In this document: positions 39,296 to 50,517 of the stretch, piece after piece
Numbering within the stretch: position 1 is the first letter of the stretch
Layout of the letters: the number at the start of each line of letters is the position of its first letter
Source of the DNA: Eledone cirrhosa
Taxonomy: Eukaryota
Assembly (NCBI GenBank): GCA_964016885.1
Contig: CAXHJY010000010.1
Span: forward strand, 1-64,000
Direction: 5' to 3'
DNA length: 64,000 bases
Made by a program: the position numbers and the translations under genes
The notes under the pieces: generated by a model
Told to the model about the DNA's origin: nothing
What the model saw: only the letters and a program-made list of their open reading frames with translations
Database searches by the model: none

Positions 39296-39784
39296 TATAA
39301 ATATTTCGTATCTCCAAAGAAATACAGGTTTAGGAAGCCGTAACTATGCAAACACCGGGGGGCTAACGCCCTCTGGTGATGTCCAGCAGAAGCAAGGGGG
39401 ACAACCGTCTATGCATTTTAGACTTAACTGGCCTTCGTCAGGACGGTCCCTCCCACCGCTTGCGACTGCTGGACTAGAAGACAGCTGAGAATATATACTT
39501 TTCTCGTCTGTGTAAATGACGTGATTAATCTCATTTGCATATGAAGCTGCATAAGTTGGCTCAACTTATAATAAAAAATGAGATTAATCACCTCATTTAC
39601 ACAGACGAGAAAAGTATATATGCTCAGCTGTCTTCTAGTCCAGCAGTCGCTGAAATGCATAGACGGTTGTCCCTCTTGCTTCTGCTGGACATCACCAGAG
39701 GGCGTCAGCCGCCCTCCGCCCCCCGATGTTTGCATAGCTACGGCTTCCTAAAACTGTATTTCTTGGGAGATACGAAATATTTAT
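39296..39784. mobile_element. Non-coding HHR element family B as an inverted pair; HHR at 39404-39447 (-)
   Basis: ACCGTC-CTGACGA-AGGC..GTCT-AAAA-TGCA-TA^GACGGT. The + arm keeps GAAA-TGCA-TA-GACGGT but has lost the CUGACGA half. Confidence 0.75.
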
Positions 39785-40074
39785 ACATATTATATAAAGC
39801 TATGCTTGAAGCGAAATCCTATTTCTCTTTTATATATATATATATATATATATATATATATATATATATAATAGGTAAAAAGTGGTTAACACAGATAAAC
39901 GGTACAGTACGGTTTATTTCTAGCATTTACATAATTCAATGTACACACACACACACACACACACACACACACACACACACACACACACATATATATATAT
40001 ATATATATATATATATATATATATATATATATATGTGTGTGTGTGTGGGTGTGGGTGTGTATATATATATATAA

Positions 40075-41345
40075 CATTGATAACTTTGATAGGTTTCGAT
40101 CAGTATTGGCCCAGGACATGTCTAACTTAATAGCACCACCTGGCGAAGTCTTTCAAATTAGGATTTGGACACCATAGCTCACTCAAATAGAGAGTTATTG
40201 TTTACAGAGACATATCCGAGTATAGGAGGTTTATCTGGGATTTCTTGGAGGAATTTGTCCAAAGACGTTTTGAATTTTATGTGGTCTGTTTGTTTTAATG
40301 TGTTTTGGTGTAATGCTAGAGAGAGCGGTCCCGTATTATTGTCATGAGATGCGAGTGTAATTTTTGTTGTGGGCGGATAAGCACGAGGCCTAAGCATTGG
40401 GTGTAGTTTAAAGATGATGCTAACATGATTTGGGCAATGCTGATGAAATATGTTACACATCATGCAAATAATGTAGCGATTACGGCGGCGTTGAAGAGAA
40501 TCAAGTTTGAGCTTTTCTAGTCGACCCCAATAGTGATTGACCTGAGAGGAGCTTTAATTTTCATGATACTTTGTTTCGTATGGGGAGACCACAGTGGACC
40601 ACAGTACTCAAGGTGGAGTCGGGTATAACTGGAGAAGGGAAGGATAATAGTGTGGCTATCTCTCGACTGGAAAGTTCTGAGAATCCAGGAAAACATTCTG
40701 TGGGCCATGTCAACTTTGCTGTTTATATGAGTGGCCCAGCTTGTGCAGTGGTTCTAAGAACAATGCTGCTTTGCAGATGATCAATGCAAATTGACAATGG
40801 AAAGGCGCTTCCGCCCGAGTTAGAAGAGAACTATTGACCTTCAAGAGAAGCAACGACCCCTGATTGTATTCAGCAACCGAAACAAATATGAAGTACACCA
40901 AATCCAATGCTTCTAGGGGCGGCCCTGGTTCTTCTTATTTGCGAATGTAAACTCGGCTAGATTAGATTAGATTAACTTATGTTGTTGTGCACAATTACTC
41001 CCAAGTCTCTGATGTTGTAGGATGCAACGAGAGTCTCACCTGAAGGAAGGGTGTATGGGAGTTTCAGCGTATCCTCTTTTCCAAAGTGGATTAACTGAAA
41101 TTTATCCTCGTTGAGCAGCATATTCTTCTTTTCCTCCCATTGGATAACAGCCAGTAGATCTGATTGGAGGTATATCCGGTCACCCACACCATTGATGACT
41201 TTCTGGAGCTTGGAATCATCTCCGAAGATTCCTATGCTGCTGTCCTTGATGATGTCAGTAATGTCATTAATAAAGACAATGAAATGAAGTGGGCCCAACA
41301 ATGTGTCTTATGGGACACCACTACTGACTTTAGCTGGGCTGGATT
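40075..41345 (-). mobile_element. CR1/L2-type LINE 3' part (RT C-terminal half), interrupted at about 40720-40975
   Basis: Reads LGPLHFIVFINDI, IFGDDSKL, LQSDL, DLGVIV, RLHLEYCGPLWSP and FKTSLDKFLQEIPD. Confidence 0.9.
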
Positions 41346-41689
41346 GTACTCTAATACACACACACACACACACACACACACACACACACACACACACACA
41401 CACACACACACACACACACACACACACACACACACACACACACACACACCCACCCACACACCCACACACCCACACACACACACATATATATATATATATA
41501 TATATATATATATATATATATATATATATACATAAGTATAAATATGGTGAGTAATATCAATTACATATATTACCCAATTACATATATTACCCAATTACAT
41601 ATATGAATATAGCTCGATGTAATATATCAAGTAAAATACACACAGAGCCGAAATACAATGTAAATAATAATCAAAGAGTATTTAATTTT

Positions 41690-47716: not shown

Positions 47717-48300
47717 AATTGTCTTGTGTTGTTTACATGACTATACATATATATATATATATGTGTGTGTAAAGTAAATGTGACTTCAAAGTTTCGCTGG
47801 TAACGGCTCGTCAAACTGTCTAATGATTCATTACTCACAAAATTTCGAAGTCACGTTGTTTATTACATAACTAAATAGCTGTATAGCTTACATAGAGCAC
47901 TCTCATTTCCGTTACTCTTCCTACGGAATCACTTAATATATATATATATATACATATATATATATAAAATATATATATATATAAAATATATATATATATA
48001 AAATATATATATATATATATATATAAAATATATATATATATATATATATATATATATATATATATATATATATATATATATATAAAATATATATATATAT
48101 ATATATATATATATATATATATATATATATATATATATATAAAATATATATATATATAAAATATATATATATATAAAATATATATATATATATATATATA
48201 TATATATATATATAAAATATATATATATATAAAATATATATATATATATATATATATATATATATATATATATATATATATATATATATATATATATATT

Positions 48301-48702
48301 TGCCCCTTAAATGGCAACTGTTTGATTAATAATATAATATATAAATGCACTGTGTCTACTACAGACTCCAAAAAAATATATATAGGATCTACATCAAACA
48401 CATTTAAGAAAAGATTTTACGCACTCTCTAGTAGTTTTAACAATACTAAACTAGCTAACACCACATCTTTAGCTGAAGCTGTAAATAATTATAAAAAGAA
48501 TAAAATAGATTTCAAGCTATCGTGGAACACCATTCTACAAAGAACTCCATATCTTGGGAACAGGAGGGAATGCAGATTATGTTCAGGGGAGATCTTGGAA
48601 ATTACTAAATCTAAGGACGATTTATTAAATAAAAGACAGGAACTGATTATAGTTTGTAATCACCGTATACGAAGAACATTTATATACTATAAACCTAATT
48701 AA
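48301..48702 (+). pseudogene. PLE GIY-YIG endonuclease domain, 5'-truncated; the element probably extends to ~50050
   Basis: CPLNGNC..NIIYKC...IYIGST...FKKRF...CRLC..E...LLNKRQEL...CNH, starting directly after a long (TA)n. Confidence 0.9.
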
Positions 48703-50060
48703 ATATTCTAAATAGCAACTCACTATAATTCTATGTAGTGTAACATTTGTTAGTACCTCTTTCCTCTAAGTATACGCAATCATGCTTATCTTTTACCTTT
48801 TAATGTTTTAGCTTCCTTAGGTTTATGCGTTAATGACTAAAGGCAACAAGGTACACAACCACCCGTAATTGCATGAGTAGATATATATATATAGCTATGT
48901 ATGTATGATATGGGAATATATTTGTGCATATGTATATGTATATGTATATATATATGTGCATATATATATATATATATATATATATATATATATATATATA
49001 TATATATGTGTGTGTGTGTGTCTGTATGTGTGTATATATATGTGTGTTTGTGTGTGTGTATATGTGAGTATATGTGTATGAGTGATTATATATGAGTGTG
49101 TGTACATGTAGGAGTGTGTGCATACACACACACACACACACACACACACATATATATATATATATATATATATATATATATATATATATGGGTATAGGTG
49201 TGTATGTGTAAATATAGATATGTATAAATATATGGGTATATGATTATGTGTATATGTTTAAATGAGTATTTATGTTTGCATCTATTTGTGCGTATGTATA
49301 TTTTTAGTTGGGTATCAATATAACTGTACCTCTCTATATATAGTGTGGATATATGCACTTTGTGATGTATGAAATTTATGTGTTTTGACTATGTCAACAT
49401 GTATTTATATGAGTTTGATTATTTATACATAAACATACTTGATAGTATTTTAGAACGTATCATACGCTGTATTGTACTAAGTGCAATTTACTACACCGTA
49501 CTATATATTGTGTTGGTTATATTATATTATTGCAATACTGTATTTCATTATCTTATTATAATTTTTATCTTTTAATATACTATATTTCCTAGCCATGACC
49601 TTATTTATATCCACCTAAAAACTCCATACAACACAAATCATCATTTATTTTTACATTCCTTTTAAACTTCACTATACCAGATACATTCAACTATCAATTT
49701 GACAATTCCTTTCCTCCTAATAGATTTGTTATGGCAAATCTATTATTAACACCATTCAACCATTCCTTTCAAAGGGTCATGACCTCAACTAAAGTGAATT
49801 ACTTTTCATCTTAACATCATATGAACAAAAACAATTTGATTGGTTAGTTCTTCAACCATCCCCAAATAAGGACATGATACTAACATACTACTAATTCTGA
49901 ATAAAATTATTATTGCTTTTGAAAACAGCTGGTGATATGCATGTAAGTAAATATTCTCTTTATCTGATGTTCTGTAACTAACCTTACATAGATCAATAAC
50001 GAAGTATAGCTACAATGTATTATCATCTACTAGAAACGATCGTAAAACGATATATATATA

Positions 50061-50517
50061 AATGGAAAAAATGAAATTTCATTTCTCACTCTTAGCACGG
50101 CTGATACTTAAATATAAGTATGTTTCCACTTATCGTTTTCGGTACGCCCGGCCGACTAACCAACTCGATATGCAAATTAGGCTGCTCAGCCGTTAATATG
50201 CATAAGGAAAGTATATACTTTCAAACGTTCAATCGACTGACAGGAAGGGATACGGTGCTGATGACAGCTAATAAGATAGAAACTAGTTCATCGTTCCTTT
50301 GTCAGTGTTGAAAAAAAGGGCAACGACGGTTGCCGAACATTGTACGGCTTAATTCGGGCTGTTTGTTTACAAACAAACCGAACATTATAATAAATGTTCG
50401 ATAAACCCATACGCACATATATATATATATATATACAGTATATGTGTGCATGTATGTATGTATATACATACTACTGTACGTCTGTATACATATATGTATG
50501 TACATATACATACTTAT
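50061..50517 (+). mobile_element. Diverged family A copy with a short 5' inversion; HHR at 50252-50294
   Basis: ACGGTG-CTGATGA-...-GAAA-CTAG-TT^CATCGT. Stem I extends through TGACA/TGTCA. Confidence 0.8.

Follow-up and report, generated by a model that had tools for sequence, protein, structure and literature searches.

An octamer followed by a TATATA motif precedes hammerhead ribozyme sequences in two families of non-coding insertions, A and B, within the 64,000-nt stretch of Eledone cirrhosa contig CAXHJY010000010.1 analyzed here (the window). In family A, both motifs lie in a 55-nt block that is conserved relative to its immediate flanks. This block is probably the elements' own upstream promoter, whichever of RNA polymerases II and III may read it; as to the polymerase itself, we favour Pol II only tentatively and by a small margin over Pol III.

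Structure of the hammerhead-bearing insertions

Family A comprises two two-armed insertions (A1 and A2) and a fragment. The right arm of A1 (46214..46740, + strand) starts with the tail of a preceding unit, passes a junction at 46305-46312 and continues into a unit that ends tail-less in (AT)n. The left arm (45461..46213, − strand) is 99.4% identical to the right one and holds a 5′-truncated unit and a full 547-nt unit ending in a tail. A1 is a partial tandem in which one 547-nt unit follows about 200 nt carried over from the unit before it, which means that the octamer–TATA block was copied along with the element. On the right arm, the octamer ATGCAAAT occupies 46350..46357 (+), where no variant falls among the 40 of 67 listed, and TATATA lies at 46392..46397 (+), the centre of a 16-nt palindrome (46387-46402). 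Both belong to the candidate promoter block (46348..46402, +), which folds as two hairpins. The left arm carries the octamer at 45967-45974, TATATA at 45927-45932 and CTGATGA from 45886 (all −). A2 (50060..50520, +), 80% identical to A1, has an inverted tail at 50060-50117, the octamer at 50170-50177, TATATA at 50212-50217 and CTGATGA from 50258. The fragment (53005..53290, +) consists of the 3′ part and the tail, without promoter block or hammerhead core.

The family A tail (46245..46312, +) has a T-rich end with T4 runs (T6 in A2) and, by analogy with the tail concept of PMC11167929, is likely the region where reverse transcription starts. The tail-to-head junction is spanned in contigs, and the window contains partial tandems only, with no long head-to-tail array. 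No tRNA genes were found in the window, and a repeat search of it was dominated by microsatellites.

Family B is represented by B1 (39300..39562, −), with the octamer at 39533-39540, TATATA at 39492-39497 and CTGACGA at 39435-39441, and by its inverted partner B2 (39562..39830, +), with TATATA at 39615-39620 and a tail at 39784-39830 ending in T4. B1 is the sole B copy with an octamer, and its core carries A instead of G12 (AAAA where GAAA is needed). B2 has the TATA motif without the octamer, and a 41-nt deletion has removed the 5′ half of its hammerhead; a full B core is obtained only as a composite of the two. TATATA is thereby found in A1, A2, B1 and B2. A third relative, E (26655..26932, −), still has the whole hammerhead core, with CTGATGA from 26833, together with the stem I extension; its octamer and TATA positions are degenerate so that neither motif is present, and an 11-bp hairpin surrounds the TATA position.

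The A1 hammerhead (46407..46497, +) is of type I, with a long stem I extension, the core motifs CTGATGA (46438-46444) and GAAAC (46459-46463), a short palindromic stem III and a predicted cut after 46468. It passes a test for the hammerhead stems. Against the Rfam model Hammerhead_HH9 it scored E = 0.04, under the gathering score; at that score the Rfam scan gave no match anywhere in the window, and B1 gave no hammerhead match at all. In the E-value scan, the best 150 of 260 matches were microsatellite and hairpin noise and were set aside. RNA self-pairing is pronounced in all three lineages (z = −3.5 for A, −4.7 for B, −3.5 for E). The insertions are, as originally predicted, non-autonomous ribozyme elements: non-coding and hammerhead-bearing.

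Occurrence and spacing of the motif pair

An octamer followed by TATATA 28-36 nt downstream occurs four times in the window (46350-46397, +; 45927-45974, −; 50170-50217, +; 39492-39540, −), compared with a mean of 0.19 and a maximum of 2 in 100 shuffles. The gap between the motifs is 34 nt in A and 35 nt in B, placing the octamer start 42-43 nt upstream of TATATA, and TATATA is separated from CTGA by 40 nt (A) or 50 nt (B). All these motifs and distances had been predicted and were borne out. The four matches represent just two lineages, with one octamer-bearing copy for B, and account for 4 of the window's 15 exact octamers. A and B have two exact 10-mers in register, ATATGCAAAT and AAAGTATATA; two such 10-mers arose in 0/5000 shuffles and 0/4844 background windows. 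A further candidate, CAACTTAT as a junction motif common to both families, was dropped: its six matches, five of them inside A or B, compare with a chance mean of 5.3, and position 46308 is variable.

Outside the window, the motif pair was found at 51 loci in viral contigs, none of which (0/51) has a hammerhead core downstream. The three-part pattern of octamer, TATA and core matched 2 viral and 13 metagenome loci, all 15 of which were judged to be chance on reading; three of these fit a loose second-core expression and, by eye, have no hammerhead stems. Family-specific patterns gave no match in genome contigs or in viral contigs.

Conservation of the block

Family A contigs show variation at 2/55 block positions (46378 and 46380) and at 21/82 positions of the immediate flanks (Fisher P = 0.0008), both counted among the 40 of 67 variants listed, the other 27 of which may include some in the block; this indicates that the block is under constraint. 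The block is thus more conserved than its immediate flanks in family A, and the outcome that would have refuted the original prediction, motifs no better conserved than their surroundings, did not occur. The comparison of A1 with A2 gives the same picture (2/55 differences in the block, 47/238 elsewhere; P = 0.002). Against the whole of 46301-46625, however, the excess conservation is weak (P = 0.06), and the tail is equally invariant (1/61, with one variant listed in 46240-46300). In contigs of two other organisms the block is almost unchanged, with 1 other letter in 134 and 7 in 215. The adjacent stem I extension, though constrained by pairing, drifts with compensatory changes (11/22 pairs changed on both sides) while octamer and TATA stay, which points to recognition at the sequence level.

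Summed contig depth was 1.2-1.6 million over the block and 1.1-2.0 million over the hammerhead, without a step at the cut site. The templates therefore usually contain the block. In run X21, read ends and loose ends coincide with AATT sites; we regard them as artefacts of a restriction library rather than biology.

Kinship of the families

The two families had been described as unrelated, with flanks dissimilar apart from the motifs. Identity outside the motifs is indeed low (42/104 columns; shuffles 33, P = 0.065), and local alignment with both 10-mers masked found nothing above shuffles (score 16, shuffle mean 21). Yet 38 of the 62 mismatches outside the motifs are transitions (34% in shuffles; value reached in 0/3000), and the tails have 19 common columns without a transversion (2/2000 shuffles). 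Relative E, which blastn aligns to B1 at 60% identity (E = 3e-7), adds to this evidence. Judged by these sequence comparisons, A and B have diverged within a single superfamily of non-autonomous, hammerhead-bearing elements that show a Penelope-type insertion structure. This kinship bears on the common motifs, as the probability of the two 10-mers given relatedness is 0.0004 at 45% background identity and 0.14 at 65%.

Possible promoter type and alternative readings

Under a Pol II promoter, a POU protein on the octamer would aid the loading of TBP onto the TATA box. Transcription would start about 30 nt downstream, at a CA in A1 (46421..46422, +; 30 nt from the start of TATATA), which leaves about 47 nt in A and 58 nt in B up to the predicted cut; CAG stands at this register in A1, A2, B1, B2 and E. 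At tandem source loci the polymerase would pass the T-rich tail and the promoter of the next unit. The multimer, or a circle ligated after hammerhead cleavage, would serve as template for a Penelope-type reverse transcriptase that begins in the tail, and the promoter would thereby enter each new insertion.

The original prediction instead called for an external Pol III promoter with a PSE-like word between the motifs. That word, TCA(G/C)C, has its start 26-27 nt upstream of TATATA, which is too close by about 10 nt, and only TCA is common to the families. H2B and immunoglobulin genes, transcribed by Pol II, have an octamer and a TATA box without a PSE; the combination suits Pol II too and so does not point to Pol III in particular. 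With G and C on either side, the short TATATA looks like a Pol III-type box, and TATATAC in family A matches the Pol II consensus TATAWAWR poorly. As to placement, the octamer lies near −72 relative to the predicted start, compared with −97 in human H1, and is not placed like a distal element. In the S. japonicum U6 promoter, it lies at −253 to −246 (type-3 promoter sources PMC7949045, PMC1761439, PMC5460494). The insect PSE starts about 35 nt before the TATA box (PSEA at 1-21, TATA box at 34-41; PMC1761439), and in vertebrates the PSE–TATA spacer is fixed at 15-19 bp (PMC7949045). Literature searches yielded no mollusc PSE sequence, and the accessible portions of PMC10886601 and PMC6962438 hold nothing on promoters.

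A compact type-3 Pol III promoter, the original idea with its PSE shifted, strikes us as rather unlikely, if only slightly less likely than a Pol II promoter: the octamer would adjoin a PSE at about 46357-46377, followed by TATA and a start near 46422. Pol III would then mostly stop at the T run of the tail, and rare read-through would make promoter-bearing circles. With insect geometry, the presumed PSE window of family A contains no listed variant, and both variable positions of the block fall in the spacer. Across A and B, however, the inter-motif stretch, which should be the most conserved, agrees at 14/30 columns with one gap (P = 0.12). In 4/4 copies tested, the stretch from the predicted start to the tail is free of T4, and all tails observed end in T4-T6, but the absence of T4 is not significant (chance P = 0.23-0.74 per copy). 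Each A1 unit has four T4 runs (the tail holds two; of the others, one precedes the octamer and one lies in the block), the A2 tail has T6, and a junction variant present in 38 contigs has T7; inheritance of a Pol III promoter thus requires read-through of T4-T7 runs. Precedents come from human H1, a compact octamer-containing type-3 promoter with all elements within 100 bp (PMC7949045), and from schistosome hammerhead repeats, which appear to be Pol III-transcribed (PMC6765202). As in H1, which also recruits Pol II, the octamer of A and B stands upstream of a short TATA box, but they leave no room for a Staf site, have the octamer closer and have no PSE common to the families (PMC7949045, PMC1761439, PMC5460494). 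It appears unlikely that the superfamily captured a shrunken U6-type promoter and spreads through Pol III circles, leaky termination and rolling reverse transcription without an internal promoter.

The main rival to a promoter is that the block works as RNA: a host protein, or the reverse transcriptase that mobilises the element, would bind its two hairpins, transcription would come from host read-through, and the motifs would resemble an octamer and a TATA box only by coincidence. We regard this as possible but doubtful. Both family A motifs indeed sit in hairpins (block fold z = −2.0), all 55 nt are conserved rather than the motifs alone, and the tail, likely a reverse-transcription signal, is as invariant. 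B and E retain a stem at the TATA position, with one pair changed on both sides, and the E loop has lost TATA; metazoan retrozymes, moreover, seem promoter-less and may rely on read-through, according to the available part of PMC7761336. Against this, A and B have letters in common while their hairpins are out of register (0 consensus pairs over the TATA hairpin), the B block shows no significant fold (z = −0.2), and two textbook promoter motifs precede a structured RNA, correctly ordered and spaced. The changes in the octamer hairpin all fall on the arm opposite the octamer, which at 2/2 is a weak argument. Neutral descent, with the 10-mers as remnants of a common ancestor and the low variation in A reflecting either the history of the subfamily or conversion driven by hairpins, seems improbable: it suits the kinship, the P of 0.14 at 65% identity and the lost motifs of E and B2, but the family A block is constrained against its flanks and nearly unchanged in the two other organisms, and outside the motifs the families match at closer to 40% of positions.

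A Pol II promoter accords with the constraint on the block and with the retention in A and B of exactly the octamer and TATA, not of the stretch between them, in differing hairpin registers. The missing common PSE, and a block depth near that of the hammerhead despite the T4-T7 runs, argue for Pol II over Pol III. Any promoter has to contend with E, whose complete core and well-paired stems come with neither motif, a state that neutral decay explains poorly (joint probability ≤ 0.02 at 10-25% decay), and with B2, which has no octamer. The invariant tail, the weak excess against 46301-46625 and the relatedness of A and B also count against it, as does the outer helix of stem I, which begins upstream of the predicted start.

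Relation to known systems

Newt satellite 2 reportedly has an octamer and a PSE without a TATA box, its transcripts beginning about 47 nt ahead of the cut. A and B depart from this type: they have a TATA box, a PSE could not be demonstrated in them, and their insertions are dispersed and inverted and bear a Penelope-type tail. Like these elements, the newt satellite is a hammerhead repeat that is short and copied in tandem; its monomer contains an snRNA-type promoter (Coats, Zhang and Epstein 1994, cited in PMC2220036), and it is reported as Pol II-transcribed (PMC2220036, PMC6765202), a precedent for the Pol II reading.

Keeping a promoter by tandem copying had been put forward as something that ordinary SINEs cannot do. 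The block is indeed copied with the element; the strategy itself, however, has already been described in newt satellite 2, schistosome repeats and Penelope, which limits the surprise. The schistosome Sm-alpha promoter is of the tRNA type. As with the candidate promoter of A and B, it precedes the hammerhead. Pol III is reported for Sm-alpha, and cleavage leaves the promoter at the 3′ terminus of the transcripts, which makes tandem copies necessary; the accessible part of PMC6765202 describes no octamer–TATA arrangement there. An upstream promoter kept by tandem copying is likewise reported for Penelope-like elements (PMC6765202, PMC2377424). We found no description of an octamer–TATA block in invertebrate hammerhead repeats in the literature covered, which excludes older subscription papers.

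Metazoan non-LTR retrozymes resemble the elements in being non-coding, with a type I hammerhead and a short palindromic helix III, and in their self-paired RNA, high copy number and occurrence beside Penelope-like elements (PMC7229834, PMC7761336). Their monomers, however, measure about 170-400 nt, are seemingly promoter-less in the sources as available and form head-to-tail arrays, whereas the A unit has 547 nt, including a microsatellite part and the candidate promoter, and is only partially tandem in the window. On the source of the high RNA levels of animal retrozymes, the 2020 review, in which they seem to lack promoters (PMC7761336), differs from the older newt and schistosome work, in which some bear promoters. 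With a conserved 55-nt block, two nameable motifs and a very high-copy family, a retrozyme promoter becomes open to direct experimental test. If functional in the host, the block would be a very small native promoter, in an invertebrate group for which we found no characterised U6 promoter in the literature; if read by Pol III, it would show how a Pol III retroposon can do without the internal promoter that such elements are held to need.

In structure the insertions resemble Penelope-like elements, which also show partial tandems, inverted 5′-truncated partners, a tail on one arm and (TA)n targets, and whose pseudo-LTRs bear a promoter, a hammerhead and reverse-transcription start sites in this order (PMC8557442, PMC2377424, PMC4209133, PMC11167929). 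An inverted 5′-truncated partner with the tail on one arm, a criterion taken from PMC8557442, is present in 3/3 two-armed insertions (A1, A2 and B). In contrast to Penelope-like elements, A and B have no ORF, and their tails measure about 60 nt (A) and 45 nt (B) rather than 30-40 nt. The single dissected Penelope promoter is internal and TATA-less (PMC2377424), unlike the upstream TATA block, which weighs against the Pol II reading. Regarding a possible autonomous partner with the same tail, the B tail has a 12-nt match at 50941-50952, not significant by blastn, and reverse transcriptase and GIY-YIG remnants lie near the elements in the window.

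Conservation and distribution of the octamer–TATA block

An octamer followed after 28–36 nt by TATATA occurs four times in the window, compared with 0.19 expected matches, at the places and with the spacings of the original prediction. Three of these matches belong to family A (two arms 99.4% identical, at 45461–46213 (−) and 46214–46740 (+), and one further copy, 80%, at 50060–50520 (+)) and one to family B, so only two lineages are represented. Both families have two exact 10-mers in common, in register, which none of 5000 shuffles and none of 4844 background windows reproduced. 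The core of the B copy at 39300–39562 (−), termed B1, carries A at the G12 position, and its inverted partner (39562–39830, +) is without octamer and with half of the hammerhead missing. At 36204–36264 (−), an isolated octamer lies in a stretch that matches B1 exactly over 14 nt (blastn E 0.017). No hammerhead is recognisable downstream of it, and it may be a decayed fragment or a chance match.

Variation in family A was surveyed with an 80% likeness cut-off, under which very divergent stretches are hidden. Among the variants listed (the best-supported 40 rows of 67, at 38 positions), two fall in the 55-nt block from octamer to TATA (46348–46402), compared with 21 in its flanks (12 across 47 nt on the upstream side, nine across 35 nt on the downstream side; P = 0.0008). 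The paired-arm copy (A1) and the further copy (A2), a comparison not independent of the read and contig survey, differ within the block at the same two positions and elsewhere at 47/238 (P = 0.002). Among the same listed variants, the T-rich tail is equally invariant (1/61) and the hammerhead core almost so (3/41). The block is less variable than its immediate flanks; set against the whole of 46301–46625, its excess of conservation is weak (P = 0.06). Family A is very abundant: in a comparison covering 4 of 23 sequencing runs, run X1 contributed 6509 matching contigs and run X21 contributed 114,731 matching reads over 386 nt, and the block is nearly unchanged in contigs from two other organisms. 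Judged by sequence, the block, constrained in family A, is a real candidate promoter of a hammerhead superfamily. Contigs of X5 and X10, from other organisms, have only the hammerhead part of A in common, with unrelated flanks (breaks near 46427 and 46462), hinting at more families using the same ribozyme.

Kinship of the families

The two families had been taken as unrelated, a view that our comparison overturns. Transitions make up 38/62 mismatches between A and B (0/3000 shuffles), their tails show 19 matching columns and no transversion (2/2000 shuffles), and a third relative, E (26655–26932, −), aligns with both, with 60% identity to B1 (E 3e-7). Outside the two 10-mers, identity is 42/104 columns (P = 0.065), and local alignment of A and B with the 10-mers masked found no match. 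Given this kinship, the shared motifs are best read as retained from a common ancestor, rather than as two captures, and therefore carry less weight; the chance of two runs of 10 is P 0.0004, 0.01 and 0.14 at background identities of 45%, 55% and 65%, respectively.

Possible promoter types and alternative readings

The TCA word proposed as PSE-like begins 26–27 nt upstream of TATATA. In insects, the PSEA occupies positions 1–21 and the TATA box 34–41 (PMC1761439), and the vertebrate PSE–TATA spacer is given as 15–19 bp, with 5-bp changes inactivating U6 (PMC7949045); by this geometry the word lies about one helical turn too near to TATA to be accepted as a PSE. A PSE placed by geometry would adjoin the octamer (46357–46377), where family A has zero variants among those listed; between the motifs, A and B match at 14/30 columns (P = 0.12), so this stretch is not common to B. 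As a type-3 Pol III promoter, the block fails in PSE position and distal octamer, but it may still work like one.

A Pol III promoter appears unlikely here, even with the short TATATA, tails ending in T4–T6 and a body without T4 in 4/4 copies (an absence that is not significant). Block and hammerhead have similar summed depths, which do not equal copy number, and depth does not change abruptly where the ribozyme would cut; templates thus usually include the block, and the polymerase must pass T4 runs in the A1 tail, junction and block, and T6–T7 runs in other subfamilies. A and B both keep octamer and TATA while the stretch separating them is free, a pattern typical of Pol II octamer–TATA promoters; reading by Pol II is a possibility that we hold tentatively, slightly ahead of Pol III. 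It is doubtful that the block is instead a signal at the RNA level: in family A, octamer and TATA both lie inside hairpins, but A and B place the same letters in a different pairing register and the B block fold is not significant (z −0.2). The relative E counts against any promoter: with a complete core and well-paired stems (z −3.5), it has an 11-bp hairpin around the TATA position and neither octamer nor TATA. Neutral decay fits the loss of motifs in E poorly (probability at most 0.02), though this evidence comes from a single copy, directly upstream of which a different repeat has inserted (tandem pair, 26930–27323). For the block itself, a neutral relic seems a very improbable explanation.

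The promoter of newt satellite 2 reportedly contains an octamer and a PSE. This promoter is described as snRNA-type and read by Pol II (PMC2220036, PMC6765202). Schistosome hammerhead repeats and Penelope-like elements retain an upstream promoter via tandem copies (PMC6765202, PMC2377424), as proposed for A and B, so this strategy is already known and cannot be claimed as new. A 2020 review still describes metazoan retrozymes as apparently promoter-less (PMC7761336), and no description of an octamer–TATA block in such hammerhead elements was found in the literature covered, which leaves aside older subscription papers. Searching for these patterns among viral, metagenome and prokaryote sequences yielded only chance matches or none, as expected for animal repeats.

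Element architecture

A1 is a head-to-head pair of arms, the left comprising ~200 nt of a previous unit and then a 547-nt unit ending in a ~60-nt tail, the right ending without tail. A2 and B share this two-armed layout with only one arm tailed, and all these insertions are set in (TA)n, which are marks of Penelope-type insertion (PMC8557442); the tail is described as flanked by two internal sites, downstream of the hammerhead, at which reverse transcription starts (PMC11167929). The family A hammerhead is type I (HH9, E 0.04, under the gathering score), and its palindromic, two-pair helix III resembles that of metazoan hammerheads cutting as dimers (PMC4209133). Across A1, A2, B1 and E, the long extension of its stem I has 22 consensus pairs in common, 11 of them changed on both sides. 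The superfamily of A, B and E is non-autonomous, Penelope-type and hammerhead-bearing.

Remnants of RT and GIY-YIG occur no more than a few kb away from the A and B elements, none in the window being tied to either as partner. At 51300–52700 (−) lies a broken Penelope-like element, presumably Neptune-like by its motifs, with RT (YIDD) and GIY-YIG preceded by a zinc finger; the B tail matches 12 nt at 50941–50952, without significance. A GIY-YIG remnant of Penelope/Poseidon type is found at 48301–48699 (+) (PF01541, E 0.005), with weaker ones near 43348 (−) and 60881 (−).

Other repeats and genes

Another hammerhead-bearing family forms inverted pairs beside (TA)n at 2998–3495, 39135–39249 and 47319–47488; its copy at 3163 has TATAAA 29 nt upstream of the core and no exact octamer. 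A further such family, in inverted pairs 97% alike (38385–38686, 59766–59926), has neither octamer nor TATA in the 130 nt upstream. A dispersed ~200-nt repeat, SINE-like in size and 72–92% alike, occupies at least seven places (8625–8848, 21553–21764, 26930–27323, 33082–33283, 35173–35361, 42655–42847, 54950–55354); ARAGORN detects no tRNA in it. Open frames at 29311–29784 (−; DUF7047, E 3e-10) and 27866–28558 (−) resemble remnants of another retrotransposon, and the open frame at 62465–63181 (−), in which Pfam recognises a von Willebrand factor A domain (E 3e-36), is probably a host exon. More inverted or partly duplicated repeats, 89–100% alike and laid out like Penelope-type insertions, lie at 41703–42097 with 43500–43891, at 34093–34533, at 44453–44706 and 45047–45359, and at 46752–46825.
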